The notes beneath the pieces were generated by a model. It was not told the DNA's origin. It was given only the letters and a program-made list of their open reading frames with translations, and ran no database searches. This document shows, piece after piece, positions 11,501 through 56,856 of a stretch of DNA of 64,000 nt. Numbering within the stretch: the first letter of the stretch is position 1; each line of letters opens with the position of its first letter. The DNA lies in contig NC_057719.1 in NCBI RefSeq assembly GCF_004010195.1, positions 36,428,585 through 36,492,584 of the forward strand. The letters run 5' to 3'. The position numbers and the translations under genes are program-made. Source of the stretch: Chiloscyllium plagiosum (lineage: Eukaryota).

Positions 11501-11514
11501 AAAAAAACAGTTTT

Positions 11515-14160: not shown

Positions 14161-14165
14161 AAAAG

Positions 14166-14515: not shown

Positions 14516-14534
14516 GCCTTGTGTGGCTCAAGGG

Positions 14535-19055: not shown

Positions 19056-19190
19056 TTCTTCACCAAAACAGCTCCAAAATTACCAACTCGAACTGCAGGA
19101 GCCAGAACTGGACATGATTTACCTACATCTGGAGACAGAACTTCAACACACACAGGAAAAGCTGAAAGAGCTGACAGAAACATTACAAAG
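19056..19190 (+). CDS. BEGAIN-like gene, first visible coding exon (coiled coil)
   Basis: ttttttatttcag acceptor, AG|gttt donor, phase 2/2. Translates SSPKQLQNYQLELQEPELDMIYLHLETELQHTQEKLKELTETLQR, resembling BEGAIN YLEIELRRAQEELEKVTEKLR. Frame-compatible with the next exon. Confidence 0.85.
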
Positions 19191-19856
19191 GTTTATTTTC
19201 AAATAAAATGAATCTAGAAACAAAATTAATAATTTGATTAGACTTCAAAATATTTTCAATTTTATTCATTAATGCAGAGAATTATTCAAGTAAAATGTTT
19301 GTTTTCCATTTTATGACACAGCGTAAAACAGAATGGCTGTTGCTTCCCAAAGCAACAGGGACCACAATTTCATTTCAAGAAGCTTTGTAAGAATTGCTTG
19401 CTTATAATTTCATTTTTTTAAATTTAGGGATTGTTACATATCTGGCTAAGTGATTCTCATGGTGGCAGTACTACATTGTGGTAATAACAATAGTCATAAT
19501 CATCTTACATTGACACAATGTGGCTGGCCCTAATTTGAAATATTTATTGGCATTAGTCTTGTTTCATTCAAACAACAATAGCAAACAGTGATGTTGAAAT
19601 TTATATACACTGGCTTATCAATACAAATTATGTCGAGGGAAAAATCCCTACAATGCAATAGGTACTGAGTTTGGTTTTGCTTTTAGCAAGGTATTTTTAC
19701 CTGATGTGGCAATGCTTACGTTACTTTTTGTAACATAAGAAACTAAGCATGGATAGTTATTGAAACATTTAATATTACAATAGAGTCATAGAGTCTTAGC
19801 ACGGAAACAGACCCTTCGGTCCAACTCATCCATGCTGACTAGATATCCTATGTAAA

Positions 19857-22800
19857 TAGAATATAGAACATAGAAAAGTACAGCACAGAACAGGCCCTTT
19901 GGGCCACGATGTTGTGCCAAGATTTAATCCTAATGTAAAATATAGTAACAACCTACGCATCCCTCAACTCACTACTATCCATGTGCATGTCCAGCAGTTG
20001 CTTAAATGTTCCCAAGGACTCTGCTTCCACCACCACCGCTCACAACGCATTCCATGCATTCACAACTGTCTGCGTAAAGAACCTACCTCTGACATCTCCT
20101 TTATACCTTCCGCCTAATATCTTCAAACTATGACTTCTCATACCAGTTAATCCTGCCCTGGCTATTGACTCTATCTATTCCTCTCACTATTTTGTACACC
20201 TCGATCAGGTCTCCTCTCTTCCTCCTTCTCTCCAGAGAGAAAAGTCTGAGCTTATTCAACCTTTCTTCATACGGCAAGCCTTCCAGTTCAGGCAGCATCC
20301 TGGTAAACCTTCTTTGCACCCTCTCCAAAGCTTCTGTATCTTTCCTATAATAGGGCGACCAGAACTGGACACAATATTCCAAGTGTGGTCTCACCAGGGG
20401 CTTGTAGAGCTGCAGCAATACCTCGCGGCTCTTAAACCCTGTTAATGAAAGCCAAAACACCATATGCTTTCTTAACAACCTTATCTACTTGGGTGGCAAC
20501 TTTGAGGGATCTATGTACTTGCACACCCAGATCCCTCTGTTCCTCCACTTTGCCAAGAATCCTATCTTTAATCCTATATTCAGCATTCGAATTTGACCTT
20601 CCAAAATGCATCACTTTGCATTTATCCAGGTTGAACTCCATCTGCCATTTCTCAACCCAGTTCTGCATTCTGTCTATGTCGCACTGCAGCCTGCAGTAGC
20701 CCTCTATATTATCGACGACACCTCCAACCTTTGTGTCATCTGCAAATTTACTAACCCACCCCTCAACCTCCTCATCCAAGTCATTTATAAAAACTACAAA
20801 GAACAGAGGCTCAAGTACAGAGCCCTGCGGGACCCCACTCAACACTGACCTCCAGGCAGAATACTTTCCATCTATAATCACTCTCTGCCTTCTGTCAGCC
20901 AGCCAATTCTGAATTCAGATAGCCAAATCTCCCTGCATCCCATACTTCCTGATGTTATGAATGAGCCTATCATGGGGAACCCTATCAAATGTCTTGCTGA
21001 AATCCATATATACCACATCCACTGCTCGATTGTCGTCAACCTGTCTTGACATCTCCTCAAGGAACTCAGTAAGATTTGTGAGGCATGACCAGCCCCTCAT
21101 AAAGCCATGCTGACTGCCTTTAATCACCCTATGCTTTGCCAAATAGTCATAAATCCTATCCCTCAGAATTCTTTCCAAAACTTTGCTGACCACAGATGTA
21201 AGACTGGCTGGTTTGTAATTGCCAGTGATTTCCCTATTACCCTTCTTGAAAAGTGGAACAACATTCATTGCCTTCCAATCCTCTGGTACGACTCCCATGG
21301 AGAGTGAGGAGGCAAATATCCTCGCCAGCGGCTTAGCAACCTCCTTTCTTGCTTCCTGGAGCAGCCTAGGATAAATCCGGTGTGGCCCTGGGTACTTATA
21401 AATCTTAATGTTTTCCAAAGTTTCCAGCACATTAACTTCATCAATCTTGATCTGGTCTAGACTGTATCCCAGCTCCTCTAAGTTTTCATTTATAACAAGT
21501 TCCCTTTCCTTGGTGAAAACCGAAGCAAAAAACTCATTTCGGGCTTCCCCTATCTGCTCGGACACCACGCAGAAGTTCCCTCCGCTATCCCTGATCGGCC
21601 CTACCTTCACTCTGATCATTCTCTTATTCTTCATGTATGAGTAAAACGCCTTTGGGTTCTCCCTAATCCTTCTTGCCAAGCCTTTTTTGTGACCCCTCCT
21701 GGCTCTCCTCAGTCCATTTCTGAGCTCCTTTCTAGCAAGCCTGTAATCCTCTAAAGCTGTGCTAGATCCTTGCTTCCTCCACATTACGTTAGCTGCTTCT
21801 TCCTTTTGACAAGAAGTTCCTCTATTCTCGTCATCCAAGTTCCTTAATCTTATCCCTTCTTACCTGCCTCAGAGGAACAAATTTGTGCATCACTCGCATC
21901 AACTGCTCCTTAAATAGTCTCCACATGTCTGCTGTGCCCTTTCTGTGGAACAATTGCTCCAAGTCTATTCTTCCCAAATCCTGTCTGATTGCGTCATAAT
22001 TTCCTTTTCCCCAACTGAATATCTTCTCTCAGTAATTGCTCCTTTCACTTTCCAAGGCTATGCTAAATGTGAGGCAGTTGTGATCACTGTCACCAAAGTG
22101 CTCTCCCACTGCGAGATCTGACACCTGTCCTAGCTCATTGCCGAGCACCAAATACAAAATGGCCTCTCCCCTCATCGGTCTGTTGACATATTGAGTAAGG
22201 AAACCCTCCTGAACACACCTGACAAAATTGGCTCCATCCAAACCATCTACACTTAGGAGGTTCCAGTCGATATTGGGAAAGTTGAAATCACCCATAACAA
22301 CAACCCTGCTACTTCTGCATTTTTCCAGAATCTGCCCACCTATGAGATCTTCAATCTCTCTACAGCTATTAGGTGGTTTGTAGAAAACCCCCAATGTGGT
22401 GACTGTTCCCTTGCTGTTCCTAACTTCCACACATACTGACTCAGTAGACAAACCTTCCTCAACAACCTTTGTTTTTGTAGTTGTGATGCACTCTCTGATT
22501 AGCAATGCTACACCCCCTCCTCTTTTTCCACCCTCCCTGTTCTTTTTAAACGTTTTAAACCCTGGAACATCAAGCAACTATTCCTGCCCCAGTGAAACCC
22601 ACGTCTCCATTATGGCCACAATATTGTAGTCACAAGTACTGACCCATGCTCTAAGTTCGTCACTCTTATTTCGGACACTCCTTGCATTACAGCAGACACA
22701 CTTTAACCGATCCCTTTGTTTCATCGCGTGAGAAACCTTCCTTTTAGATTCAATATATCCTGTCACTGTCACGTCTGCAACTGACCCCCTCTTAGACATG

Positions 22801-23536
22801 TGGCTCTGATTCCCACCCCCCCCCTGCCAAACTAGTTTAAACCCTCCCGAATCACACGAGCAAATCTCCCACACAGGACATTAGTACCCCTCCAGTTCAG
22901 ATGCAACCCGTCCTTCATGTACAGGTCCCACCTTCCCCAGAAGATATCCCAATGGTCTAAAGACCTCCCACCTGCGCCAGCCTTGCAGCCACGTGTTAAG
23001 CTGCATTCGCTGACTGTTCCTCATCTCACTATCTCACGGCACCGGTAGCAAACCTGAAATCACTACTCTATTCATCCTGCTCTTCAGCTTCCAACCTAAC
23101 TGTCTGTAGCTGCTCCCCCTCCCCCTTCAGAATCTTGTAAACCCGATCGGCAACATCCCAGACCCTGGCAAAAGGGAGGCCACATACCTTCCGGGAGTCC
23201 CGTTCCTGACCACAAAATCTCCTGTCAATCTGTCTAACTATTGAGTCCCCGACCACTAGCGCTTTTCTATTTTCCTCCTTCCGTTCTGAGCCACAGTGCC
23301 AGGCTCAGTGCCAGAGACCTGATAACTGTGGCTTACCCCTGGTAGGCCGTCCCCACCAGCAGTATCCAAAATGGTATACTTATTGCTGAGGGGAACGGAC
23401 ACAAGGGATTCCTGCTCTGACCGTCGGTTCTCTTTCTTCCCCCTGACAGTAACCCAGCTGTCCTTATCCTGTGTTTGGGGAGTGACCACCTCTCTGTATA
23501 TCCTCTCAATTTCCCCCTCAGCCTCCCGTTTGCCAT
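19857..23536 (-). mobile_element. Near full-length CR1/HER1 LINE with frameshifts and stops
   Basis: ORF1 SGNH-esterase (VGDSIVR), APE endonuclease (GDFNFPNIDW, GDSDHN), RT ([15 protein letters not shown]), (ATAGAAC) tail. Inserted into an older CR1 tail split as 19780-19856 and 23537-23580. Confidence 0.97.
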
Positions 23537-23589
23537 CTAGTCCTATTTGCCAGCATTTGGCCTATATCCCTCTAAACCCAAGTTCTGAT

Positions 23590-24095
23590 CAGGTCTTGGG
23601 GATTTATCCACGTTTATACGTTTTAAGACATCCAGCACGTCCTCATCTGTAATATGGACGTTTTTCAATATGTCACTATTCATTTCCCCATGTTCTGTAT
23701 CTTCCATAAATTCTCCACAGTTAACACTGATGCAAAATACTCATTTAGTATCTCACCCATCTCCTGCAGTTCCACACGTAGGCAGCCTTGCTGATTTTAA
23801 GCAGTTTTATTCTGTCTCTAGTTACCCTTTTGTCTTTAATGTATTTATAGACCAAAGGACCCTTCAGCCCTCGATGTTGCACCAACCTGTGAAAGCAATC
23901 TGAAGCCCATCTATCCTACACTATTCCATTCTCATCCATATGTTTATCCAATGACCATTTAGGTGCCCTTAAAGATAGTGAGTCTATGACTGTTGCAGGC
24001 AGGGCATTTCACACCCCTATCACTCTCTGAGTGAATCCCTTTGGGTTCTCCTTAACCCTATTTGCCAAACCTATTTCATGTCCCTTTTTTGCCCA
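23590..24095 (-). mobile_element. CR1 fragments (linker region interrupted by another 3' tail at ~23848-24032)
   Basis: Similar to 48820-49000; interrupted by gacccttcagccctcgatgttg tail sequence. Confidence 0.65.
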
Positions 24096-24849
24096 TATTG
24101 AAACATTTAATTAAAATATATAAATATTACATTTCACAGATATCTGATGTCTAGGGTAGTATTAAGCTATTTGATTAATTCAGAGCTGCATTGCTTTCCT
24201 GCTATGCTTTAAGTGATCTGAGTTTAGATGGAGCATGTAATCTTTATATCCTTCTGTCAAATGCCATGGTATAGTGATAATACCATGATCTCTTAAAAGT
24301 ATAACGACGCACTGTGTCTCCTAAAGGTAGACCATGAGATATAACACATCTCCCTTTCTCAAAAGATTAATAAAACCCACATACATGTTCATGTATAGTC
24401 ACATATTGTTAGTTTGATTATTACACAAACAGCGAAAAGAGAATTTACAAGATGAAAATTTCAAACTTCAATGTAACACTTTGGAAGTTTGACAACTCAT
24501 TATAGCCTCTCTGGAAAGGTTTATACTGTTCTGTGTTGCCCTTGTTTGACAAATTGGTTTTCTTACTGCTGATTGCTGTCATTTAGTATTATCATACATC
24601 ATCATTGTCAGAACTTTCCACTTCAATTACTTTGTGTATTTTGATGTGTTGCATGTTGGGCTGAGTATGCTCCTGTCCTTCACAATGCAGCACCATGATC
24701 AGTAATGATTTTGTGTTATCTGGGCTAATTGCATGTTTTAGAAACCTTAGCTGGTATCATTGTATCTCTAATTCATACTGTTTGTTCAGTGTGCAGTTTT
24801 AGTAGGTCCATATCTGCTCACCCATCAGGTATTTCATTCATTCTCATCT

Positions 24850-25955
24850 TTCAAAATATAACATCCTGTCAAAATAATATCCTGTTCCTCAGAATCATTA
24901 GATAATTGATTGCTGGGTAAAATCATTGCCTTCTGATCACAAGTTATACTTGGGATGGTAATCCTTTCCCCATTGGTGCTGCATGAAAACACAGCAATGC
25001 AATTTAACTACTTCAACATATGGGTCACTCCTCACTTTGTACACATCTGGAATGTTTTGCTAGTGTATAGCTGTCCACTGCCAAAGATGATCCATTCTGG
25101 AATATTGGATAAACTGAACATACTATCCATCATTCTAGTAACAGTTGCACTCGTTGTATTGCTAAATCATGGAACAATGGGAAACTTAGAGAAGTAATCC
25201 ATCACAATAATATAATTTTCTCCAAACTCTGTGAGTAAGTTTGTTGCTACTTTTGCTCAAGGACTGGCTGGAATATTGTGTGGATACTTCATCTGCTGCT
25301 GGGCTTTTGGCATGCATTCACAAGTCATTGACTATCCTGTTTAATTCCTGACCAATGTGCAGACTCACTTGCTAGCCAGCTATTTGTTCAATATCGTTTT
25401 TACATAATGCTTCTACAATTAGGACTTGTTTACCCTTTAAAATGACTTGTTGTGATTATACCAAGATCAACCCTGTATGACAAAAGTGAATTAATTTTCT
25501 CAGGTACTTAGTATTGCAGGCCATGACTGGATAATTATCTTTTGCAGCTCTAGTAATTGCTCACCTTCGGCAGTGGCCGATTGCAGCTGTTCACACTGGC
25601 TCTTGTCAAAGTGTAATAGATCAATCTTGATAACGTCTTCAATGTTATAGTCCAGAGCATCAATGTGCTGAGGAAGGGTCACTGAACTACCAAGATTAAC
25701 TCTGATTTCTCTGGCAGATGTTGCCAGACCTGCTGAGCCTTTCCAGCAATTTCTGTTTTTGTTTCTGATTTCCAGCATCCACTGTTCTTTTGGTTTTGTT
25801 GTGCAGATCAAGATGATTATCCTGGTCTTTGTGTGAGATGGGTAATCTGCTCAGAGTCCCAGATATAATCTTCCTGACATCTGATATATACTTCACTTCA
25901 AACTTATATCCTTGCACCTTGGCTAGATGCTACAAATCGGGCGATGCATCATGAA
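24850..25955 (-). mobile_element. Degenerate Gypsy pol remnant (RNase H to integrase)
   Basis: QGYKFEVKYI...LSRLP; LLELQKIIIQSWP; integrase-like KVATNL..IIVMDYFS. Interrupted by a Penelope-type terminal fragment at ~25666-25800. Confidence 0.7.
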
Positions 25956-26066
25956 AGAGTTGATTTGATTTGATTTATTGTAGTCACATGAACCTAAGAA
26001 CAGTGAAAAACTTTGATTTGTGAGCAATACAGTCAGATCATAGCAAACAAGGACATACAGATCATA

Positions 26067-26195
26067 GGAGAAAGTGAGGACTGCAGTAGCTGGAGATCAG
26101 AGCTGAAAATGTGTTGCTGGAAAAGCGCAGCAGGTCAGGCAGCATCCAAGGAGCAGGAGAATCGACGTTTCGGGCATGAGCCCTTCTTCAGGAAT
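26067..26195 (-). mobile_element. Penelope-derived terminal repeat
   Basis: Same family as 14535, 36714 and 60082; carries a hammerhead core. Confidence 0.8.
26161..26195 (-). ncRNA. Minimal type I hammerhead ribozyme motif, core intact
   Basis: The - strand reads ATTC-CTGAAGA-A-GGGC-TCAT-GCCC-GAAA-CGTC-GAT: CUGANGA, 4-bp stem II, GAAA, palindromic ACGU in place of stem III, GUC cleavage triplet. Confidence 0.75.
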
Positions 26196-26499
26196 GGGTG
26201 ATCGAGAGTTTGAGAACATGATTCATCAGCAGAGAAACAGCAACTGTGGCATCCCAGGAAATTTGTGAGTTGATTGTTTAACAGTAACTGCTGTTCTGTA
26301 CAATATTGCAACACCAGTCATTTTGAACAGCAGGAATGTTTAAACTAGCACAAACTGAAAACAAGGCATAGTGGAGGAAGCTGATTAGTGAGTTAGGGAA
26401 AAGAAATTGCTACTCATCTCTAGTTTATAGGAATAGTAAAAGAGTAAGTTCAAAGGAAGTAAACTTAACTAAAGTCAAAGTAATGAATTATAAGCCTAT

Positions 26500-29400
26500 G
26501 GTATAGCAGGCAACTTCGCCAAGAGGAATAGTCATCCTGTAGCACAGGAGAATTGTGAGAACTTCTCATGACCTACACAAGTTATGTCCAGGAAGTGTCA
26601 CTGGCTGCACAAGCTTGAGCTCCAGCTCAAGCTCCTTTTAGGTGCATAAGAGGCAGAGAACCAAGTGTGGAGTTTGTTCAGAAGGAGGTAACACTGCAGG
26701 GAAGGTCGAGGCAGGCAGTCCAAAAGAAACACACAGAGAGTGCAGACATCCCCAAATGTCCTGCTTTCTAGTTAGTTTTCCATTCTGGATATTGGGGATA
26801 GAGATAGATCCTTGGAAGAGCGCATCAAGAATGGCCCAGCTATTAGGAGATTTGATTAGATTAGATTACTTAGTGTGGAAACAGGCCCTTTGGCCCAACA
26901 AGTCCACACCGACCCTCCGAAGAGCAACCCACCCAGACCCATTCCCTTGCATTTACCCTTTCACTTAACGCTACAGGCAATTTAGCATGGTCAATTCACC
27001 TAACCTGCACATTTTTGAACTGTGGGTGGAAATCGGAGCATCCGGAGGAAACCCACGCAGACACGGGGAGAATGTGCAAACTCCACACAGACAGTTGCCT
27101 GAGGCAGGAATTGAACCCGGGTCTCGGGGACAAATAGGCATTCTTATTGTTAGGGGAATAGACCAGCATTTCTGCAGCCACCAACGTGACTCCAGGCCGG
27201 CATGTTGGCTCCAAATTCAAGAATATCATAGAGCAGCTGCAGAATGTTTTTCTGAGGGGAGGCAACATTGGTGCTAATGACATAGGTAGGAAGTGGAATA
27301 TAGCCCTGGAATCAGAACTGAATGAACTAGGTAGAAAACTATCTAGCAGGATTCTAAAGTAGTAATCTCCAGATTACTCCTCACCACATGCAAGTGAGTA
27401 CAGAAATTGGAAAACAAGGCAGTTGAATGCATGGAAAGATGATGTAGGAGACAGAGTTTGAGATTGCCAAGACACCAGGACTGGATCTGGGGAAGTTGGC
27501 ACCTCTACAAGTCAGATGGGCTGCATCTGAACAGAGGCAGAACCAAGTTCCTTTTTGGGTGTTTTCATAATGCTACTGGGGGGGGGGCGGGGGGGGTTTA
27601 AACTAACCCAGCTAGAGTAAGGGAACTATAGGAGAATATTAGAAGGTAGTACTTGGATGCATGAAATGCTGAGAGAGGCAGATTTCATTAAAGTACAGAA
27701 TAATAAGTTAATAGGTGGAATCAAAGTAAGAGAAAAAGTGTGAAGGTTACACAATACACGAATGTGAAGGCATGGAATATAGTTAATAAGACTGGAGAGT
27801 TACAGCTCTTGTGGAGTTATAATGTGGCAATAATGGAGACCTGAATCAAAGAGTGTTAAATATTCCTGGTTACAAGGTGTACAGAAAAGATGGGAAAGGG
27901 CAGAAGGGAGGAGAGATAGCACTATTGATTAATGAAAGCATTGCAGTATTGAAGACAAAAGATGTTTCAGAGGGGTCAACAACAGAATTCATTTGGCTAT
28001 AGCGTATGAATAAGCAAGATGCAATTATATTACTCAGCCTAATTTGCAGACCACGAATTAGTGGGAAAGAAACAAGAGGAATAAATCTTCAAGAAAATTA
28101 GAGAGATGTGTAGACACCATAGAGTAGGTATGTTGGGGGATTTTAATCACCTAAATTTAGACTAGTTAGTGGTCTTGTAGGGATAACCGAGCGACAGATA
28201 TCCCTAGATTATATCGCAATTTTTTTCTATAACAGTTGTGTCCAATCCAACAAGAATGGAAGCATTGCTGGACCTTATTCTTAGGAAGTAGGTGGACCAA
28301 GTAAATCAAGTGACAGTAGGAAAACATTTAGTGGACAGTGATTATTGTATTATAAGGTCAAGGATAACAATGGTAAATGAAATGAAATGACGAAGAATAA
28401 TCAACAGGTGAAGAGCTAACTTCAATGGGGCTAGAACCGAGCTTCACTGGATAGATTGAAACAAAGTTTAATGGGAAAAACAGTCTCTGACCAATGGGCT
28501 ACCTTCAAAAAGGAGATTGTTTGAACAGAGTCAGGGTATATTCACTTGAGTGGGACAAACAAATACAGAGGTACCTTGGTGACAAGGGAAATGGACATTT
28601 TTAAGGAAGAAAACAATATGCTTAGAACAGGTGTCAGATGTTAAGTACAGGATTGAACAACTGCAAACATTAAGCCTTTGCTCAAAAAATATTTGTGAAT
28701 ACAGACCCAGCAATTCAGACCAGTCAGTTTAAGTTCAGTAATGGGGAAACCTCTAGAAACAATAATTTGGGATAAAAGTATGGTTGACTCAAAAGATTTA
28801 GCATGGGTTTGCTAAGGGAAAATTATGTCTAATTTACTTGGTGGAGGTTTTCTTATGAGAAAGCAGAGAACTGATGAACATAAGGCTGGTGATTAAAAGA
28901 CTTTTAATATACAAAGACACAATTCATAAGCTTATGAATAAAGTTATAGGTCATGAATAGAAAGGACAATTAAAAGTGCATGTAAAATTGGCTGAGGGAC
29001 GGGAACAGAGCTTATTAGTTAACATATATTTTTTGAGCTGGAACTAGGTTTGTATTTGAGTTCCCCAGGGGTCAGTGTTAGGACCCTTATTTTTCCTATA
29101 TAGATAGATATAAATGATGTAGATCTTGAGTGCACTGGCCAATTTACAGATTTTGTAAGAGATTTGTAAGCTGTAAGGATGACAGTGTAGACCCACACAA
29201 GGACATTGACAAGTTGGTGGAGTGGCTGGATAGCTGGCAAATGAAGTTTATTGCAAAGAAATGGAAGGTGATGCACATTGGTACAAGAATGGTTCCAGGA
29301 ATGAGAAATTTCAGTTATGAGGATAGATTGAAGAAGCTGGGACTGTTATCCTTGGAGAGAAGAAGACTGAGAGGAGATGTAGCTGATGTTTCCTAAATCT

Positions 29401-29752
29401 CAATGTGCAAGCTGGATGGGCAGCGGGTATTCCTGCTTGTAAAAGAAAAAAAAATAATGAGAGGGCGTGGAATTAAAGTGATGTGCAAACGAAGCATGGG
29501 TGCTGTAAGAAAACAACATTTTCATTCAGTATTGAAGGTGTTCACTCAGAGTAGTTGGGATATGAAATGCCCTGCCTGGAAATGTGTTGGAGGCAAATTT
29601 ACTTGAGGCATTTGAATGCATTAATGATCATTTGGATAGAAATAATGTGCAGGGAAGTGGGGACAAGACAAGAGATTGGGACTAGGGTAATAGAGCAGTA
29701 CAGGCACAATGGGTCAAATAGCCTACTTCTGAACTATAATGATTCTATGATG
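26500..29752 (+). mobile_element. Old, heavily decayed near-full-length CR1 LINE
   Basis: ORF1-like sequence (acattggtgctaatgacataggtagg), endonuclease (ggggattttaatcacc), RT and C-terminus (SYEDRLKKLGLLSLERRRLRGD), gattctatga tail. Confidence 0.8.
26850..27126 (-). mobile_element. HE1 SINE inserted in CR1 ORF1
   Basis: (TTAGA)n tail, V-core and B-box. Confidence 0.92.
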
Positions 29753-29754
29753 AG

Positions 29755-30276
29755 CAGGGAGTTTATTAAGAATTTATAAAGCAGTTAGGCATCAGCTGGA
29801 GTACCATATCCAGTTCGGGGCACCACATTGTATAAAGAATGTGAATGTATATGGGACTGTGCAGAAGAGTTTTGAGGTTCCAGGCATGTGAAACTTCAGT
29901 TATGGGATAGATTGAAGATGTTGGGATTATGTTCCTTGGAGAGATACGAGTAAGGAGAGATTTGATGGATGCTTTCATAATCATTAGAGAGAATGACAGA
30001 TCAGTGGGGAGAAACTGTTCCCACTTGTAAAAAGACTAAGGACCAGAGTGAGTGATTGGGATCGGAATGCACCGCCTAGCAGTGTGTGGAGGCATGTTTT
30101 ACTGAGGCAGTCAAGTGGGTATTCATTGATTTTACTACAAACAATGTGCTGGGTTAAAGGGAAAAGAGAGGAGTTTGGCATTAAATCAAAATGCTGAAAA
30201 AGCCAGTACAGACACAATGGACAGAAAGCCAATACCCAGTGAGGCCCTCTTGTGCACTGTAACAATTCTGTGATTC
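29755..30276 (+). mobile_element. Decayed CR1 3' fragment
   Basis: ctggagtacc..ccagttc...caccaca; ends ctgtaacaattctgtgattc. Confidence 0.65.
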
Positions 30277-32392: not shown

Positions 32393-32459
32393 GACACAAA
32401 GCAATCAGACAGAATTACAAAGAGTTAACCAGGATCTTGAAAAGAAGCTGCATAGGATG
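32393..32459 (+). CDS. BEGAIN-like gene, 67-nt coding exon
   Basis: tttag acceptor, ATG|gtgagt donor. TQSNQTELQRVNQDLEKKLHRM versus BEGAIN IQSNYMALQRINQELEDKLYRM. Confidence 0.92.
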
Positions 32460-39890: not shown

Positions 39891-39939
39891 GCAGTGACCC
39901 TAAGAACTGTCTTCAGTCCTGTTTTGACAGAACTAGTCC

Positions 39940-40292
39940 CGCTTTGACTGTCTCCCAGGTCCCTTCTGACTGTCCCCCAGTCCCCTCTGACTGTCCCAAG
40001 TCCCACTCTGACTGTCCCCCAGGCCCCCTTTGACTGTCCCAAGTCCCCCTCTGACTGTCTCACAGGCCTCCTCTGACTGTCCCAAGTCCCACTCTGACTG
40101 TCTCCCAGGCCCCCTCTGACTGTCTCCCAGGCCCCCTCTGACTGTCCCAAGGTCCCCTCTGACTGTCCCAAGGTCCCCTCTGACTGTCCCAAGTCCTCCT
40201 CTGACTGTCCCACAGGCCTCCTCTGACTGTCCCAAGTCCCTCTCTGACAGTTCTCAGGGCCACTCTGACAGTCTTCAGTCCCGCTCTGACTG
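39940..40292. repeat. Minisatellite, ~20-22-bp unit (CTCTGACTGTCCCAAGTCCC-like)
   Basis: About 16 tandem degenerate units with a conserved ctgactgtc core. Confidence 0.92.
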
Positions 40293-46815: not shown

Positions 46816-47073
46816 TATTTTAAGTGTTCCCAGATATATTTGAATTGCTGTAAGTAGTTTAATTTTATTGTAAGTACAATACAATTTGTTTAAATTTTAA
46901 ATAAATTGATTTGAAAATTAATCTCCTGTCAATGTGCATTGTTTTGTGCAGCATTGTTATTTTGTTTAACTCATTATTTTGAAATATGCCTTGCAAATTA
47001 CACATATAAATTTTAAAAAATGTAATTGATCCATCTTGTGCAATATTTAACTGTATTCATGATGTACACACAG

Positions 47074-47181
47074 GTAGAACTACATGAAGAGGAAAAGAGA
47101 AATCTCAGCCATGAAGTCATCACTTTATGCAATCAGCTAATGGAAGCCAAAATAACCATAGATGAATTAACAGAAAACAAT
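47074..47181 (+). CDS. BEGAIN-like gene, 108-nt coding exon
   Basis: cacag acceptor, AAT|gtaagt donor, phase 0/0. VELHEEEKRNLSHEVITLCNQLMEAKITIDELTENN versus BEGAIN GQHYEEEKRALSHEIVALNSHLLEAKVTIDKLSEDN. Confidence 0.93.
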
Positions 47182-47574
47182 GTAAGTAACTGAGAACAAA
47201 TATGTCCCTGAAAACTCACATTCAACAAAAGATAAAACAAAGCAATTGGAATTTTAAACCTTTTCCAGTACTTTATCTATGTGACATTTTGAGGCAATGC
47301 CTGTATATTCAAAGGGAATGTGTGTACACAAAAATTTCACCCCTTAACAGCAGCAGTACCTTTTAAAATCATGTCTGGGAATTCCCCATAATCTGCCTTC
47401 CACCAGCTAAAGGGTAGAGACCCAGCAAGAGATCCACATTGTTACCATTGGTGCTTGATACAGGCAGCCTTCCTGAGTCGGGCAGTGGAGAGGCCAGCAT
47501 TGGGCCTTTCCCTGCAATCAGGATCACTACTGAAACTGTTAGAAGATTAGAGATCACACAGCAACACCATTGAA

Positions 47575-47725
47575 AATAACGTGGAGATGCTGGTGTTGGA
47601 CTGAGGTGGACACTGTCACAAGTCACACAATACTAGGTTGTAGTCCAACAGCTTTATTTGAAATCACAAGCTTTCGGAGCATTGCTCTTTCATCCGCTGA
47701 AGTTGAAGGAAGCTATAGTCATAGG
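47575..47725 (-). mobile_element. Penelope-like terminal region with mutated hammerhead; continues at ~50704-50960
   Basis: The - strand reads CGGATGA-A-AGAGC-AAT-GCTCC-GAAA-GCTT. Confidence 0.6.
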
Positions 47726-47729
47726 ATAT

Positions 47730-50699
47730 TGTAAACCCTCCTGCTTAATTTAAACTGACAACACAGAAAAGATTTATCCCTTGCAGTAACCTGTGAAAAC
47801 TCATGAGGCCAAGAACTACTTAAAGTAAAAATTAACAAATTTATTTACAACTCCTTCCTCTAACCTATCTTTTACCTTCCCTTCGAGAATAGAGTCATAG
47901 AGATGTACAGCATGGAAACAGACCCTTCAGTCCAACCCGTCCATGCTGACCAGATATCCCAACCCAACCTAGTCTCACCTGCCAGCACCCGGCCCATATC
48001 CCTCCAAACCCTTCCTATTCATATACCCATCCAAATGCCTCTTAAATGTTGCAATTGTACCNNNNNNNNNNNNNNNNNNNNNNNNNNNNNNNNNNNNNNN
48101 NNNNNNNNNNNNNNNNNNNNNNNNNNNNNNNNNNNNNNNNNNNNNNNNNNNNNNNNNNNNNNNNNNNNNNNNNNNNNNNNNNNNNNNNNNNNNNNNNNNN
48201 NNNNNNNNNNNNNNNNNNNNNNNNNNNNNNNNNNNNNNNNNNNNNNNNNNNNNNNNNNNNNNNNNNNNNNNNNNNNNNNNNNNNNNNNNNNNNNNNNNNN
48301 NNNNNNNNNNNNNNNNNNNNNNNNNNNNNNNNNNNNNNNNNNNNNNNNNNNNNNNNNNNNNNNNNNNNNNNNNNNNNNNNNNNNNNNNNNNNNNNNNNNN
48401 NNNNNNNNNNNNNNNNNNNNNNNNNNNNNNNNNNNNNNNNNNNNNNNNNNNNNNNNNNNNNNNNNNNNNNNNNNNNNNNNNNNNNNNNNNNNNNNNNNNN
48501 NNNNNNNNNNNNNNNNNNNNNNNNNNNNNNNNNNNNNNNNNNNNNNNNNNNNNNNNNNNNNNNNNNNNNNNNNNNNNNNNNNNNNNNNNNNNNNNNNNNN
48601 NNNNNNNNNNNNNNNNNNNNNNNNNNNNNNNNNNNNNNNNNNNNNNNNNNNNNNNNNNNNNNNNNNNNNNNNNNNNNNNNNNNNNNNNNNNNNNNNNNNN
48701 NNNNNNNNNNNNNNNNNNNNNNNNNNNNNNNNNNNNACCTTTGAGCCAGTTCTGTATCCAAATGGCTAGTTTTCCCTGTATTCCATGAGATCTAACCTTG
48801 CTAATCAGTCTCCCATGGGGAGACTCATTTAGTATCTCCCCCATTTTCTGTGGCTCCACACAAAGGCCGCTTTGCTGATCTTTGAGGGGCCCAATTCTCT
48901 CCCTAGTTACCCTTTTGTCCTTAACATATTTGTAAAAACCCTTTGGGTTCTCCTAATTATATTTGCCAAAGCTATCTCATGTCCCCATTTTGCCCTCCTG
49001 ATTTTCCTCTTAAGTATACTCCTACTTTCTTTATACTCTTTGAAGGATTCACTCGATCTATCCTGTCTATACCTGAAATATGCTTCCTTCTTTTTCTTAA
49101 CCAAACACTCAATTTCTTTAGTCATCCAGCATTCCCTATACCTACTAGCCTTCCCTTTCACCCTGACAGGAATATACTTTCTCTGGATTCTTGTTATCTC
49201 ATTTCTGAAGGCTTCTCATTTTCTAGCCGTCCCTTTATCTGTGAACATCTGCCTCCAATCAGCTTTCGAAACTTCTTGCCTAATACCGTCAAAATTAGCC
49301 TTTCTCCAATTTAGAACTTCAACTTTTAGATCTGCTCTATCCTTTTTCATCACTATTTTTAAACAAATAGAATTATGGTCACTGGCCCCAAAGTGCTCAC
49401 CCACTGACACCTCAGTCACCTCCGCTGCCTTATTTCCCAAGAGTAGGTCAAGTCTTGCACCTTCTCTAGTAGGTACATCCACATACTGAATCAGAAAATT
49501 GTCTTGTACACACTTAAGAAATTCTTCTCCATCTAAACCTTTCACACTATGGCAGTCTCAGTCGATGTTTGGAAAGTTAAAATCCCCTACCATAACTACC
49601 CTATTATTCTTACAGATAGCAGAGATCTCCTTACAAGTTTGTTTCTCAATTTCCCTCTGACTATTGGGGGGGTCTAAAATACTTTTCCAATAAGGTGATC
49701 ATCCCTTTCTTATTTCTCAGTTCCACCCAAAAAACTTGCCTGGATGTATTTCACAGCTGTAATGCTATCCCTTATCAAAAATGCCACTCCCCCTCCTCTC
49801 TTGCCTCCCTTTCTATCCTTCCTGTAGCATTTGTATCCTGGAACATTAAGTTGCCAGTCCTGCCCACCCCTGAGCCATGTTTCCGTAATTGCTATGATAT
49901 CCCAGTCCCATGTTCCTAACCATGCCCTGAGTTCATCTGCCTTCCCTGTTAGTCCCCTTGTATTGAAATAAATGCAGTTTGATTTATCAGTCCTACCTTG
50001 TCCCTGCCTGCCCTGACTGTTTGACTCACCTCTGTTCTCAGCTGTACCTGTCTCAGAGTCACTTCTACCCCAAAAGAGATTCCAATGATCCAAAAATGTG
50101 AATCCTTCTCCCATACACCAGCTCAGCCATGCATTCATCTGTTCTATCCTCCTATTCCTGCCCTCACTAGCTCGTAGCACTGGGAGTAATCCAGATATTA
50201 TACTAGTCCAATAAAACGCAACTAAAATTTACCAAAATTTCAAGTTTTCAAAACCATACAGTTGTCGAATCTTCTATTTGGATCTTCCTGTGTCTTCTTT
50301 ACTTCTTCTTAGGGATTATGCTTCACAGGTCATGGATCGATAAAGGTACCTTTAAGAGAGTTATTTTTTGGGCAGTCTCCACATGCTGGTGGCTTGGCAG
50401 TTCTTCTCCCAAGTGTTCAATTTTCCATAGTCTTATACCCCCAAAGCATCGGGTTGTGTCATTGGCTTTTAAGATTGTCAGTGTACTAAATTCAAACTTG
50501 ATTGGAATTTGGTATTTTTCGGGGTATAATTTAAACTATCTGGCCTAATTCGAATATGTTTCTGTCTCCAGGCAAATAGCTACGCCAGTAGCTGGACCAC
50601 ATGTTACATTATATCTTATTCAGAACACTTGGTGCTGTCAGGTAGTTCTGCTAGCTTTTAACTCTCCTAAAGGTACAGCACGCCCATATCTTCATAACA
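47730..50699. mobile_element. Solo LTR (47730-~47884 plus ~50199-50699) split by a CR1 insertion
   Basis: TG...CA termini flanked by an ATAT 4-bp TSD (47726-47729 and 50700-50703). Confidence 0.7.
47886..50198 (-). mobile_element. CR1/HER1 LINE with internal deletions, spanning N gap 48062-48736
   Basis: ORF1 end, endonuclease (DIIAITETWL, GASDHN), linker, 3' tail agagtcatagagatgtacagc. Confidence 0.92.
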
Positions 50700-50962
50700 A
50701 TATGTACAGATGGTGAGGAAAAAGAGCAGATGCTGTGGGACTGAACCTCCTTACCAGAGGCCTCGGATCACAGAGCAATGCAGGTAACAGTTAAGTAATG
50801 GCAGGAAGGGCTTCCCGTGATGGTGTGTGTTGGGAGCATTGGCAACAAGGTTGGGAGTGGTTCTCAGTTGACTTCTCTTCCTGATTCCATGTCCTTCAAT
50901 TAGGCAATGACTGCCTTTGGAGGGAGGACCCACCACTGGCTACTGCCACCCCTTTGCTTCAA

Positions 50963-53765
50963 CATAGGCCCCCCAATAGCAGCAGAGATGTGGAGAAACA
51001 GATTGGGAAACAGATTTTGGAAAGGTGCAGAAGCCACAGGGTCGTAGTCATGGGCGACTTCAACTTCCCAAATATTGATTGGAAGCTCTTTAGATCAAGT
51101 AGATTGGATGGGGCGGTGTTTGTGCAGTGTGTCCAGGAAGCTTTTCTAACGCAGTATGTAGATTGTCCAACCAGAGGGGAGGCCATATTGGATTTGGTAC
51201 TCGGTAATGAACCGGGACAAGTGGTGGGCTTGTTAGTGGGTGAACATTTTGGTGATGGTGACCACAATTCTGTGACTTTCACCTTGGTTATGGAGAGAGA
51301 TAGGTGCGCACAACAAGGTAGATTTTATAATTGGGGGAAGGGAAATTACGATGCTGTAAGGCAGGATTTGAGGAGCATACGTTGGGAGCATAGGCTGTCA
51401 GGGAAGGATGTGGTGGAAATGTGGAACTTCTTCAAAGAGCAGATACGACGTGTCCATGATATGTATGTACCTACCAGGCAGGAAAGAAATGGTCGTGTGA
51501 GGGAACCTTGGTTGACAAGGGAGGTTGAATGTCTTGTAAAGAGGAAGAAGGAGGCTTACATAAGGTTGAGGAAACAGGATTCAGACAGAGCAGTGGAGGG
51601 ATACAGGATAGCCAGAAGGGACCTGAAGAAAGGGATAAGGAGAGCTAAGAGAGGGCATGAAAAATCGTTGGCGGATAGGATCAAGGATAACCCCAAGGCA
51701 TTTTATGCGTATATGAGAAACCTGAGAATGACGAGAACGAGGGTAGGTCCGAACAAGGACAGTAGTGGGAGACTGTGTATTGAGACGGAAGAGATAGGAG
51801 AGGTCTTGAACAAGTACTTCTCTTCAGTATTTACGAACGAGAGGGACCGTATTGTAGAAGAGGAGAGTGTGAAATGGACTGGTAAGCTAGAAGAGATACC
51901 TGATGGAAGGAAGATGTGTTGGACATTTTGAACAACTTGAGGAAAGACAAGTCCCCTGGGCCTGACGGGATATATCCTAGGATTATGTGGGAAGCAAGAG
52001 AGGAAAGTGCAGTACCGTTGGCAATGATCTTCTCGTCTCCACTGGCAACTGGCAAGAGACTTGATGAACTTCTGCCCGTTTCTTATCTGCCAATGTGATG
52101 GCCTCCATTTCCTCAATAAGACAACCTTTTTCAGATAATAACATTCAGGGATTCATTCACATTCTTTTTCTGTGTGTGCCTTTTGATACAATTGCTTTAA
52201 ATTTTCTCCTTTTTGCTATAACTCAGCTAATTTATCTGAGCTAAAGATATCTGTATTGTCAGCTATCTGCTCCTCGCTTGTCTCAACCATCTGATCTAAC
52301 AGGGTCTCTGCTAATTCCACTTCATCTTTCTTATCTGTGCTCTTTGATGTCTCCTGTTTAAGCATGTGAATTTGTGACCTTGTTACCACACAGTTCGGAA
52401 AAATCCAGGATATGAGTCTAAGGGAATAGGGATTACCCCGGGAATTACAGGCCTGTTAGTCTTACTTCTGTGGTAGGCAAAGTAATGGAAAGGGTACTGA
52501 GGGATAGGATTTATGAGTATCTGGACAGTCACTGCTTGATTAGGGACAGCCAGCACGGATTTGTGAAGGGTAGGTCTTGCCTTACAAGTCTTATTGAATT
52601 CTTCGAGGAGGTGACCAAGCATGTGGATGAGGGTAGAGCAGTGGATGTAGTGTACATGGATTTTAGTAAGGCATTTGATAAGGTTCCCCATGGTAGGCTT
52701 ATGCGGAAAGTTAGGAGGCATGGGATAGAGGGAAATTTGGCCAATTGGATAGAAAAGTGGCTAACCGGTCGAAGGCAGAGAGTGGTGGTAGATGGTAAAT
52801 ATTCAGCCTGGAGCCCAGTTACAAGTGGAGTTCCGCAGGGATCAGTTCTGGGTCCTCTGCTGTTTGTAATTTTTATTAATGACTTAGATGAGGGAGTCGA
52901 AGGGTGGGTCAGTAAATTTGCAGATGATACGAAGATAGGTGGAGTTGTGGACAGGGAGGGCTGTTGTCGGCTGCAGAGGGACTTAGATATGATGCAGAGC
53001 TGGGCTGAGGAGTGGCAGATGGTGTTCAACCCTGCCAAGTGTGAGGTTGTCCATTTTGAATGCGGAATACAGGGTTAACGGTGGGGTTCTTAGTGAGGTG
53101 GAGGAACAGAGGGAATTTGGGGTCTATGTTCATAGGTCTTTGAAAGTTGCCACTCAGGTGGATAGAGCTATGGTGTTTTAGCGTTCATTAGCAGAGGGAT
53201 TGAATTCAAGAGTCGTGAAGTGATGTTGCAGCTGTACAGGACTTTGGTTAGGCCACAGTTGGATTACTGTGTGCAGTTCTGGTCGCCTCACTTTAGGAGA
53301 GATGTGGAAGCTTTGGAGAGGGTGCAGAGAAGATTTACCAGGATGTTGCCTGGAATGGAGAATAGGTCGTACGAGGATAGGTTGAGAGTTCTCGGCCTTT
53401 TCTCGTTGGAACGGCGAAGGATGAGGGGTGACTTGATAGAGGTTTATAAGATGATCAGGGGAATAGATAGAGTAGACAGTCAGAAACTTTTTCCCCGGGT
53501 ACAACAGAGTGTTACAAGGGGACATAAATTTAAGGTGAAGGGTGGAAGGTATAGGGGAGATGTCAGGGGTGGGTTCTTTACCCAGAGAGTGGTGGGGGCA
53601 TGGAATGCGCTGCCCGTGGGAGTGGTAGAGTCGGAATCATTGGCGACCTTTAAGCGGCATTTGGATAGGTACATGGATGGGTACTTAATCTAGGTTAGAA
53701 GTTCGGCACAACATCGTGGGCCGAAGTGCCTGTTCTGTGCTGTATTGTTCTATGTTCTATGTTCT
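50963..53765 (+). mobile_element. Young CR1 LINE ORF2, interrupted at ~52047-52419
   Basis: Long open segments 50954-51931, 52470-53078 and 53220-53693 ([27 protein letters not shown]); (TTCTATG)n tail. Confidence 0.95.
52047..52419 (-). mobile_element. Internal fragment of a Gypsy (Gmr1-like) LTR element
   Basis: The - strand reads PGFFPNCVVTRSQ...LAEL*QKGENLKQLYQKA...LRKWRP, like the protease-integrase linker of vertebrate Gmr1-type elements. Confidence 0.55.
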
Positions 53766-53766
53766 A

Positions 53767-54294
53767 AAACTCTGGTGCGGCCGCACTTTGGAGTATTGCG
53801 TGCAGTTCTGGTCACCGCATTACAGGAAGGATGTGGAAGCTTTGGAGAGGGTGCAGAGAAGATTTACCAGGATGTTGCCTGGAATGGAGTGGAAGTCGTA
53901 CGAGGATAGGTTGAGAGTTCTCGGCCTTTTCTCGTTGGAACGGCGAAGGATGAGGGGTGACTTGATGGAGGTTTATAAGATGATCAGAGGAATAGATAGA
54001 GTATACAGTCAGAAACTTTTTCCCCGGGTACAACAGAGTGTTACAAGGGGACATAAATTTAAGGTGAAGGGTGGAAGGTATAGGGGAGATGTCAGGGGTG
54101 GGTTCTTTACCCAGAGAGTGGTGGGGGCATGGAATGCGCTGCCCGTGGGAGTGGTAGAGTCGGAATCATTGGCGACCTTTAAGCGGCATTTGGATAGGTA
54201 CATGGATGGGTACTTAATCTAGGTTAGAAGTTCGGCACAACATCGTGGGCCGAAGGGCCTGTTCTGTGCTGTATTGTTCTATGTTCTATGTTCT
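53767..54294 (+). mobile_element. Tandem second copy of the CR1 3' end
   Basis: 529-bp offset; the antisense ORFs 53480-53674 and 54009-54203 are identical. Confidence 0.92.
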
Positions 54295-55173
54295 AACATC
54301 AAAAAGCAACCCACACAGGTTTATGTCTCATAGCAACAGTTAAACTCACAGCTATGTAACATCAGCAGCAGTGCAATGGCAACTGTAAGTGGTCATTAAT
54401 AGTCCACTTAAAGGCCTCAACTGACAGCATGGGGGTGGGTGTTGACCACCAGCCTTAGACCCTCAGATGGAAGCAGAAGGTAGTGTCCTCCATCCTCCCA
54501 TCTGATTAAACGCTTTTTCCAGTTCCAAACATGCCACTGAAGAGAGAAAATGATTCTATATGAATCATAGAGTCCCTACAGTGTGGAAGCAGGCCATTCA
54601 GCCCATGGAGTCTACGCTGACCCTCCAAAGAGCATCCCTCCCAGATAGATTTAATGGTTTGTCCAGTTATAAGTAACTTTTTGGAACAGTTTGCTTTAGC
54701 AGTGCTCCTCTCTAAGGGCTAACTTTCCTCCAATAGTCTAAATCTGGGGAACTTTAACTCCATCACAAGTAAGAGATTTTGATTTAGCAACATGAGTTAC
54801 TTATCATTTTGGTGTTGGTGTTGGGGCTAGGGTTTAGAGGAAAATAGGAAGAAGGCACAGAGAATGAAGCAACATCTACATGATGTGATTACAAGTTAAA
54901 ATCCCCCATAACATAAGCAACAAATGCTGACCCAGTTAATGACACTCACATCCCATGAACAAGCAAATGGATAAACAAGACACAGATCTTATGAACATTT
55001 CAGCAATAATTTTTGCCAATCATGAATATTGTTCTCAGAAACTATTGGAGAAAAGTTCTAATCAGCTTCTGCATTCAGACTTGCAGCCAAGACCATTTGC
55101 CTGAGTAGCATTGCACATGGCTGTAAATGAATGGCAGTACTTAATTTCAATGCCCGTATCTCCTTTTAAACAG

Positions 55174-55248
55174 CCATGGTTGTTGTACCACTGTAACATC
55201 ACCCTGATGCGATGTAGTCATAAATTTACCAGGCTTACAATACAATTT
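55174..55248 (+). pseudogene. Putative decayed exon of the BEGAIN-like gene
   Basis: Branch-like cttaat and tctccttttaaacag acceptor. Phase 0 translation PWLLYHCNITLMRCSHKFTRLTIQF resembles ELYRKDCNLAAQLLQCSQTYGRV. Followed by ttaaga instead of a GT donor. Confidence 0.45.
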
Positions 55249-55524
55249 TTAAGAATCTGGAGAATTCAAGCAATGTAGAAAAACATAAGCAGCACTGTCA
55301 TTGAGCTATACACTTAAACATGTTGCTAGTTTTCCAGTGTTCAGGACACAATAACACTGTACACATACCACTGTAATTTTCTAGTTAACTCGTCAATGGT
55401 TGTTAATAGAAAGACTATTCACTAAATGCTCAGATAGTGTGTGACTGATTCCTAAGAATCCTACAGTCTGTTATCAAGGCGGCACAATTGTGGTGTTACC
55501 TGACCATTTTTTGATTAACCACAG

Positions 55525-56856
55525 CTACCGGCAGAAGTTCAAGAAAGGGTTAGAATCCATGCAGAGAAATTTGGATGTGATATTCCTGGGACTGCATGTC
55601 ATTCATCTTTCTTCAACACTCAAGCTGACGTTTTACAGAAACTTGAACCAACTGGTTTATCAGGCTCTGCAATTCCTGTGTCACCCTCAAGAAAGGTTAC
55701 ATATGATCATTTGAACAGCATTAATAAACCTGACCAATGGTCACCTTGCAAGTCTAACTTATATCATAGTGATACAGCTCTTTACTGCCCTGCAGAACAG
55801 AGAGACAGATGGCAGGTTAGAAATGCTCATTTTTTAAAAACACGGAGCTTTACAGATAGCTGCACAGAAGCCGAGGGCTTTAGTCCAACTCTCACAAGTG
55901 AAATGCTTTCAAATTATACTGCATCAATACCAAGTTCCTCCAGCTATCTAAGCAGCACCATGACAGCTGAGAAGAAAAGAACCGCAGAAGCTAAATCAAC
56001 CTTGCCTCTAACCCAACAAGTTGTTTTGAAAGATGATATTCATGAAAGAAAATACAACACTTCGGAAAGGCAAGAAAACAAGAAATGTCATTTCATTCCA
56101 ACAAAACCACTACAACAATTCACAGACATGGCACTAGGTTATAAAGATAGCACACAACAATGCTCTGCCACTCCTCCAATAGACTTTAGTGATTCACCAC
56201 ATTTGTTTTGGTTCAGTACTAAGCATGTAACAATCCCAAAGCTATACAATGATCAAGAAGATGAGAACAACTTAGAAAAAGACAGAATGGGTCAACTTAA
56301 GAAAGCCAACACGCACTATACAAATACTTCTTCACACAGGATTTCTGGAAGGATTTTGAGTAGTGATGTTGAGCAGCAATGGAATAGTCATCTGATGAAG
56401 GAAACAACCAACAACATGAACCAGTTTTTCGTCAGAGAAAATTATTTCCCTGATGGTGAAGATATCAACAAAAGTACCTTTACAGATGTAGGCTTTGGTG
56501 CAATGAACTATCAACCTTGCTTAGAGATTGATCACAATAAACAAGAAAGCTCCTCCATGCTGAGATACACAGAGACAGAAGATGGACCTAAAATATTGCC
56601 AAGTGAAAGGAATACAAATAAAATGTACATCAAAAATACAAATACTGTTTCGGACATTAATAGAATTGTTGATGTTGCCTCAAACACTTTGGCTAAATCC
56701 TTATGCCAACGTCCCATTAAATTTTTAATGGTTCATAATGTTCCCTTGGATGATGTTGTTTCAAGTAGCAAACAAGAAAAACCCTTAAAGATAAGTGGCC
56801 TTTACAGGAAGGACAGCCTCATAAAGGCTCAACTTTATGGAAATCTACTAAACTAA
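55525..56856 (+). CDS. BEGAIN-like gene, terminal coding exon (443 codons plus TAA)
   Basis: ccacag acceptor, then LPAEVQERVRIHAEKFG (BEGAIN LPSDFQERVSLHMEKHG). In frame with the 55678-56856 ORF. Contains YHSDTALYCP and ends GLYRKDSLIKAQLYGNLLN* (BEGAIN ends RKDSLTKAQLYGTLLN). Confidence 0.93.
   Translation, partial: LPAEVQERVRIHAEKFGCDIPGTACHSSFFNTQADVLQKLEPTGLSGSAIPVSPSRKVTYDHLNSINKPDQWSPCKSNLYHSDTALYCPAEQRDRWQVRNAHFLKTRSFTDSCTEAEGFSPTLTSEMLSNYTASIPSSSSYLSSTMTAEKKRTAEAKSTLPLTQQVVLKDDIHERKYNTSERQENKKCHFIPTKPLQQFTDMALGYKDSTQQCSATPPIDFSDSPHLFWFSTKHVTIPKLYNDQEDENNLEKDRMGQLKKANTHYTNTSSHRISGRILSSDVEQQWNSHLMKETTNNMNQFFVRENYFPDGEDINKSTFTDVGFGAMNYQPCLEIDHNKQESSSMLRYTETEDGPKILPSERNTNKMYIKNTNTVSDINRIVDVASNTLAKSLCQRPIKFLMVHNVPLDDVVSSSKQEKPLKISGLYRKDSLIKAQLYGNLLN

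Follow-up and report, generated by a model that had tools for sequence, protein, structure and literature searches.

A fast-evolving BEGAIN gene in the bamboo shark Chiloscyllium plagiosum and a conserved exon missing from shark and ray proteins

Gene structure and transcripts at the locus

We analyzed a window of 64,000 nucleotides from the genome of the bamboo shark Chiloscyllium plagiosum (contig NC_057719.1, positions 36,428,585 to 36,492,584 of the forward strand), which carries four exons of a gene that, judging from sequence comparisons, is very probably the bamboo shark orthologue of BEGAIN rather than an extra copy. A six-frame scan of the window revealed a 445-codon open stretch at 55519-56853 that contains both an SDTALYCP motif and a KAQLYGNLLN end, with three short coiled-coil exons upstream. 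When spliced, the four plus-strand exons form an uninterrupted frame of 546 codons whose product exactly matches residues 53-598 of the RefSeq protein XP_043554368.1, an 'uncharacterized protein LOC122553926' of C. plagiosum, the model of which bears no family name. The gene is already modelled in RefSeq, albeit unnamed, and its relatives are already named BEGAIN; the real point of interest is an apparent lineage-wide, in-frame loss of an exon. The features of the locus are as follows.

19056-19190 (+), 135 nt: internal coding exon, start of the coiled coil (residues 52/53-97 of XP_043554368.1), AG acceptor and GT donor
32393-32459 (+), 67 nt: internal coding exon, coiled coil, AG acceptor and GT donor
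47074-47181 (+), 108 nt: internal coding exon in phase 0, end of the shortened coiled coil, AG acceptor and GT donor
47182-55524 (+): intron filled with long interspersed nuclear element (LINE) sequence, where chimaera and bony vertebrates carry a 28-codon exon, of which profile and frame scans detected no remnant
48062-48736 (no strand): assembly gap of 675 N within the intron 47182-55524, with LINE sequence on either side
55525-56856 (+), 1332 nt with the stop: terminal coding exon, 443 codons plus TAA, AG acceptor; predicted short helix followed by a long disordered tail
55768-55791 (+): SDTALYCP motif, present in BEGAINs and absent from the TJAP1-type rows listed
56806-56829 (+): R-x-x-S-L-x-x-A tail motif (RKDSLIKA), candidate phospho-dependent site for the guanylate-kinase (GK) domain found in PSD-95/DLG proteins
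56857-57250 (+): 3' untranslated region, covered by terminal-exon contigs that extend 456-977 nt past 57250

The exact match to RefSeq bears out the initial annotation, which had proposed four exons with canonical splice sites encoding about 546 amino acids with no stop, and the motifs that it named are in place: SDTALYCP starts at 55768, and the KAQLYGxLLN end reads KAQLYGNLLN. Two of its structural claims have to be revised. The gene had been called intact, but the copy in the window is incomplete, its start exons being located further upstream: residues 1-51 of XP_043554368.1 have no match within positions 1-19056. The exon boundaries had been considered standard, but an exon that chimaera and bony vertebrates carry between the third and fourth window exons is missing.

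Four runs (type unrecorded) were aligned to positions 54400-57250. Contigs of 3 of the 4 runs cover the terminal exon, those of runs X1 and X2 starting exactly at 55525 and that of X4 at 55549. The unique intron sequence before 55525 has no contig cover apart from short repeat matches, a pattern that fits spliced RNA. The gene is real and spliced, its contigs being distributed as expected for spliced RNA. Furthermore, 109 nt precede 55525 in the X2 contig, the length expected of a directly attached third exon (108 nt) plus one shared base. This length suggests that the third and terminal exons are directly joined in the RNA.

Two side observations concern the 5' part of the gene. An ATG-started stretch at 18647-18690 (+), with a GT donor in phase for the 19056 exon, is a possible alternative first exon; it matches 13/13 residues of the start of the C. 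punctatum prediction GCC25350.1, and no RNA support was seen for it. Two Hemitrygon models lengthen the 19056-19190 exon by 11 codons via a later donor (19191-19224 in the window). In the window, this extension is closed by a stop at most 5 codons past the first donor.

Relationship to BEGAIN and rate of divergence

A search with the terminal exon returned 11 clusters, all from cartilaginous fishes and one per named species, with identities ranging from 97% down to 31%. With the N-terminal region of the chimaera protein as the query, the best 120 of 639 matches consisted of the chimaera protein itself and bony-vertebrate BEGAINs, including one unnamed row with a frog-like junction sequence. 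A profile was built from the bichir, coelacanth, lungfish, sturgeon, paddlefish, chimaera and Heptranchias sequences, and the sole chondrichthyan among its best 120 of 757 matches was the chimaera protein. Lungfish appeared in the best 120 of both searches; the 120 best matches of the profile search also included coelacanth, bichir, sturgeon and gar. A second, conserved chondrichthyan BEGAIN was found neither among the terminal-exon clusters nor among the best 120 of 639 and the best 120 of 757 matches. A conserved shark BEGAIN would be expected within these lists, and the window gene is probably the single BEGAIN orthologue of the bamboo shark. A further search against 1.84 billion representatives produced 496 matches, the best 150 of which were listed and included TJAP1 as well as lamprey, hagfish, amphioxus, tunicate and arthropod members; it clusters sequences at 50%, and a conserved shark copy could escape it.

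Phylogenies were built with 7-12 chondrichthyan rows, as a quick whole-length tree (37 rows) and a careful tree of the core (22 rows). In both trees, the chondrichthyan rows, with the chimaera branching first, are sister to bony BEGAIN, and no bony-vertebrate row falls inside the chondrichthyan clade; Heptranchias branches ahead of the rays in both, with weak support. The BEGAIN clade is supported at 100/99 in the core tree, whereas grouping of the chondrichthyan rows with TJAP1 costs 71.5 log-likelihood units and is rejected by the approximately unbiased (AU) test (p-AU 0.000499). The NCBI names of the Callorhinchus, Mustelus, Pristis and Hypanus proteins read BEGAIN without '-like', and that of the Cetorhinus protein reads 'begain'; the proteins of several other species are named '-like' or 'uncharacterized'. 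Si:dkey-174m14.3, the UniRef label given to the chimaera protein, recurs on a member of the gar BEGAIN cluster, and we rejected it as the name of a third paralogue for this reason; PMC3644299 uses the label only as a marker name. Taken by tree, motifs and naming, the gene appears to be BEGAIN by descent and not TJAP1, a third paralogue being unsupported. The assignment to the BEGAIN family made by the initial annotation holds. It had also suggested a possible extra paralogue of cartilaginous fishes, which is not supported: the gene groups with bony-vertebrate BEGAIN in the quick and the core tree alike, and no second copy is present among the listed matches.

Two alternative assignments were weighed. 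That the gene is a diverged TJAP1 (Pilt) is scarcely credible: it shares the family core and the GNLLN end with TJAP1, but it carries SDTALYCP and the BEGAIN tail, the AU test rejects the grouping, and, compared exon by exon, it is identical to turtle BEGAIN at 54/104 positions versus 35/104 for whale TJAP1 (no shark TJAP1 was present among the sequences retrieved). It is also very unlikely that the gene is an old extra paralogue, one of three ohnologues together with BEGAIN and TJAP1, and that a conventional BEGAIN sits elsewhere in the genome or has been lost from cartilaginous fishes. Such an origin would account for the low identity, the altered exon set, the '-like' and 'uncharacterized' names in several species and an end that reads GNLLN, as in TJAP1, versus GTLLN in bony BEGAIN; however, the N of GNLLN is also found in Ciona and is probably the ancestral state. 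Neither coexistence with a conventional BEGAIN nor deep branching was observed among the listed matches and in the core tree. In that tree, the branch between the chondrichthyan and bony copies is short (0.086 + 0.063) and those that follow are long, and the chondrichthyan clade is free of bony rows.

A side observation concerns jawless fishes. NCBI gives the name BEGAIN to a Lethenteron protein that clusters with TJAP1, and the rows from sea lamprey and hagfish do likewise. The placement of these sequences (P0188, P0292, P0196 and P0218), which have long branches, is unsure, and a jawless-fish BEGAIN proper was not present among the sequences retrieved.

The orthologue is unusually divergent, as the initial annotation had recognized. 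In the coiled coil, which it had put at about half identical, the window gene matches turtle BEGAIN at 54/104 aligned residues (52%), compared with 94/113 for coelacanth. Taking the coil exons in order, the identities to turtle are 18/46, 14/22 and 22/36 for the window and 50/55, 17/22 and 27/36 for coelacanth, the first exon being shorter (46 aligned residues versus 55), again as claimed. The central region had been described as unrecognizable; it is divergent, with a mid-tail identity to turtle of 87/319 (27%) as against 177/335 for coelacanth, yet its alignment with BEGAIN is collinear and continues to the end, the Heptranchias and chimaera sequences serving as a bridge. Of the last 20 residues, 16 are identical to turtle in the window and 19 in coelacanth.

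In the core tree, root-to-tip distances were taken from the jawed-vertebrate node; the window lies at 0.71 and chimaera at 0.52, compared with 0.22 for gar, 0.25 for coelacanth, 0.27 for turtle and 0.40 for gorilla, so that the window branch is ~2.6-3.3 times as long as those of slow bony lineages. Most of the divergence postdates the split of chimaeras and elasmobranchs (0.43 and 0.24 plus later branches). Because the common chondrichthyan stem measures only 0.086, the change arose after the chimaera split, in both lines. Given the long branches after that split and the short one between the chondrichthyan and bony copies, the divergence is, on the core tree, that of a fast-evolving orthologue and not that of an old duplication. 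According to PMC3964593, chimaera proteins are the slowest among vertebrates genome-wide; the rate of BEGAIN runs opposite.

The 28-codon exon and other pieces absent from shark and ray models

In an alignment of 19 rows, all 7 shark and ray rows lack a block of 28 residues that the chimaera and 11 bony rows keep. Its position coincides precisely with the point where the third window exon meets the fourth. Among gene models, the 28-residue motif is present in none of the 21 from sharks and rays (20 of these, from 13 species, span the site and one ends earlier), in 5/5 from chimaera and in 152/164 from bony vertebrates. The chimaera exon is identical to bony BEGAIN at 19-21 of its 28 residues, and TJAP1 retains the segment, as do the lamprey, hagfish, amphioxus, tunicate, scorpion and sawfly members of the family. 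In a 63-row family alignment, 7 of the 20 nearly invariant columns fall within it.

The exon is not the only missing part. Six residues of the first coil exon are absent from all aligned sharks and rays, and 3 more from Chiloscyllium and Stegostoma. The VPTxVI stretch was found in 0/21 shark and ray models; the chimaera also lacks it, through a longer gap. Sharks and rays are thus devoid of three conserved pieces of the N-terminal domain, namely, the 6 coil residues, the 28-codon exon and the VPTxVI stretch. Consequently, the window gene does not contain the full-length BEGAIN/TJAP1 core, in which the 28-residue segment follows the third coil exon and the VPTxVIA stretch is present. As a side observation, the third coil exon of the Cetorhinus model P0006 is spliced to a site deeper in the terminal exon, so that the SDTALYCP region is absent, which is either a quirk of annotation or a further loss.

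The 12 of 164 bony models without the motif, from gar, paddlefish, birds, turtles and a lizard, share the same clean junction. Gar models X1 and X2 differ by the 28 residues, as do paddlefish models X1 and X3, so that each species has both forms; in the paddlefish model P0058, the exon is present in a variant form. That precisely this exon is skipped in the 12 models makes it probable that an old splice isoform became fixed in sharks and rays. The VPT pattern is missed by 35 bony models, and 31 of these show a 34-residue skip by their printed junction; the VPT stretch is therefore optional in some isoforms too.

We searched the genomic sequence for the exon. A 28-codon profile scored at best 5.8 bits against all frames of the window, compared with 43.2 bits for the held-out chimaera exon, and none of the open AG..GT candidates of 78-90 nt in the intron resembles it. 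Within the intron, only the 675-N gap at 48062-48736 could still conceal it. The exon is likely to have been lost from the genome across sharks and rays. Alternatively, the orthologue could still contain it, concealed in the gap or too diverged for recognition, with the annotation having caught only the skipped isoform. This is unlikely, even though skipped isoforms occur in bony vertebrates that keep the exon, the 675 N lie in the right intron and the relatives were compared as protein models. All 20 models from 13 species lack the exon, whereas the chimaera copy, with 19-21/28 identities and 43.2 bits, indicates that it would be easy to annotate; moreover, LINE sequence is present on both sides of the gap, and the VPT stretch has disappeared too.

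Comparison with known proteins places the loss in context. Bony BEGAIN (labelled si:dkey-174m14.3 in fishes) resembles the window gene in its sister position in both trees, the shared exon junctions, the coiled coil, SDTALYCP, the collinear tail and the R-x-x-S-L-x-x-A end; relative to the turtle protein, the window gene is 9 residues shorter in the first coil exon and has neither the 28-codon exon nor the VPT stretch. Skip models of gar (XP_069049311.1), paddlefish (XP_041131163.1) and chicken (XP_040528152.1) display the same junction of the third coil exon to the terminal exon as the window. However, in these species the skip form coexists with the full form and still contains the VPT stretch, whereas in sharks and rays it is the sole form on record. 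The BEGAIN of Callorhinchus milii (XP_007886584.2) belongs to the same clade, has diverged fast, ends in GNLLN and lacks the VPT stretch but, unlike the window gene, has both the 28-codon exon and a complete first coil exon, with a longer block gone around VPT. TJAP1/Pilt and the invertebrate members have the coiled-coil core in common with the window gene, and the R-x-x-S end is common to chordate members; all those shown keep the segment absent from sharks and rays, and they have no SDTALYCP. Many invertebrate members end in ETEI, QTSV or similar, which we take to be PDZ-type tails. Neither the exon loss nor the rate of chondrichthyan BEGAIN was the subject of any paper found in the open-access literature, supplements being outside the scope of the search.

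Predicted coil, cap and tail, and the proposed course of events

An AlphaFold2 model of turtle BEGAIN contains a helix at residues 2-132 and ordered elements at 141-145, 148-160 and 178-187, with only two strand marks, at 141-142 and 178-179; the two strands may pair to each other. In turtle numbering, the lost exon corresponds to residues 118-145 and the VPT stretch to ~177-183. In the model, both losses thus strike one small cap. The shark model contains only helices 55-153 and 158-170 in this region, and a disordered stretch separates them from a terminal helix.

Two copies of shark residues 50-200 were folded together, with a dimer score of 0.52 (best of 3 controls, 0.01), a predicted local distance difference test value of 71 and in-register coil contacts at 70-152, the runs agreeing in at least 70% of contacts. 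The mark for this score was reached by 21/30 solved pairs and 0/23 single chains of microbes and by 17/29 solved pairs and 0/30 single chains of eukaryotes (animals, 7/16). The two-copy fold supports, without showing, a dimer, and an N-terminal coiled coil forming a homodimer is thus predicted for the shark protein. In rodent BEGAIN, as described in PMC10716515, the N-terminal region homodimerizes and the C-terminal region binds the PSD-95 GK domain; a BEGAIN knockout, according to PMC5066261, took out exons 4 and 5. Structure and domain searches added little. Pfam scans of the terminal exon and four full proteins returned nothing at the cut-off, and PF27583, listed for all scanned proteins in the homologue tables, was not returned by the local Pfam scan. 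A sequence search of the PDB gave one chance match (E 0.27), Foldseek with the turtle model gave nothing at E 0.001 or better, and residues 52-260 retrieved from the ESM Atlas only generic coiled-coil clusters (kazrin and others, 0.89-0.91), which are uninformative.

The R-K-D-S-L-x-x-A tail is present in 20/20 shark and ray models that reach the tail, 5/5 chimaera models and 164/164 bony models. SAPAPs bind DLG GK domains via R-x-x-pS-Y-x-x-A, as stated in PMC10171801, and BEGAIN is listed among the GK partners in PMC6989407, where the site is not stated. The R-x-x-S tail motif could be the GK site of BEGAIN. On balance, both dimerization and GK binding are more likely than not to have been retained in sharks. 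The likeliest picture is that of a dimeric stalk with two putative GK-binding tails and no cap.

The following course of events is proposed. The 28-codon exon would have been an optional cassette already in early jawed vertebrates; the ancestor of sharks and rays would have fixed the skipped form, the exon itself being lost. In bony vertebrates, this exon is modelled to provide the final 15 residues of the long helix as well as the connection to the small folded cap, to which the VPT stretch would also contribute. The shark protein, in contrast, would be a shorter parallel coiled-coil dimer without a cap, a scaffold presenting two R-x-x-S tails to the PSD-95/DLG guanylate-kinase domain, and whatever binds the cap would have been lost as a partner. 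One candidate for such a partner is ARF6, which PMC10820826 and PMC13305319 report for TJAP1. As a whole, the explanation by a fast-evolving BEGAIN orthologue, with exon loss in sharks and rays and with the dimer and the tail kept, is one that we hold with good confidence. The compared proteins show that constraint on BEGAIN loosened in cartilaginous fishes.

Several points weigh against this explanation. Beyond the window, the absence of the exon rests on gene models, and the 675-N gap offers no letters to read; database models also underlie the bony skip isoforms, many of them from related birds. An early duplication with reciprocal loss would be compatible with these trees. In the whole-length quick tree, the root-to-tip distance of the window (0.94) exceeds those of coelacanth (0.53) and pheasant (0.67) but is no longer than those of gorilla (1.03) or spiny eel (0.93), so that the rate excess is clear only relative to slow lineages and in the core. 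The score of a coiled-coil dimer may reflect its likeness to solved coils, and the Y of the published consensus is replaced by L in the tail motif. The junction in the RNA follows from a length, and in the single-cell RNA run X8, of which ~2/100 was read, no read fell on the terminal exon. Finally, the differences listed between the window and the organism of run X1 in the terminal exon comprise 16 non-synonymous and 6 synonymous ones. The resulting non-synonymous to synonymous ratio (pN/pS) of 0.68 is indistinguishable from neutral (p 0.43) and rests on too few differences to claim present-day constraint on the tail.

This ratio, obtained from 22 differences, together with the stepwise loss of conserved motifs, would also be expected if the orthologue were turning into a pseudogene, its deletions and fast change reflecting loss of function. 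We regard this as most improbable, because an open frame is retained by 13 shark and ray species as well as by the chimaera, all deletions are in frame, the tail motif is present in 20/20 models that reach the tail, and the transcripts are apparently spliced (contigs starting at 55525). The lineages of sharks, rays and chimaeras split hundreds of millions of years ago.

If the explanation by a fast-evolving orthologue is correct, it has several implications. Cartilaginous-fish proteins serve as slow-evolving stand-ins for the ancestor of jawed vertebrates; for the postsynaptic scaffold BEGAIN, they would represent a derived lineage. The loss marks a candidate module, consisting of the end of the coil and the cap, in a family for which no solved relative was found, and it brings to attention the skip isoform of birds, reptiles and fishes. 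The exon loss and the divergence would also explain why several shark annotations leave the gene unnamed. More tentatively, and with considerable doubt, sharks and rays might be natural deletion mutants for a part of the domain conserved from insects to mammals, with partners or tissue changed rather than mere drift, the release from constraint having begun in the common ancestor with chimaeras and both halves of the cap having been lost. If so, the cap would be a separate, uncharacterized binding module that is switched by splicing in other vertebrates.

BEGAIN is located beside WDR25 and DLK1 in other genomes. Outside the coding exons, frames of at least 45 amino acids in 56857-64000, inspected by eye, revealed no neighbour gene. 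The remaining features are repeats. Broken LINE copies with endonuclease-like and reverse-transcriptase-like frames, which we take to be of the CR1 type, are located at 50885-53690 (+), 20435-22577 (-) and 48740-50230 (-), several of them in introns of the gene. The intron without the exon also contains a near-identical tandem duplication of ~530 nt of a LINE 3' end at ~53230-54295 (+), which is either real or an assembly artefact. A minisatellite with a 21-nt unit in ~17 copies occupies 39935-40292 in the second intron. Decayed frames at 4678-6647 (-), by eye similar to parts of gag and integrase, presumably derive from a long terminal repeat retrotransposon.

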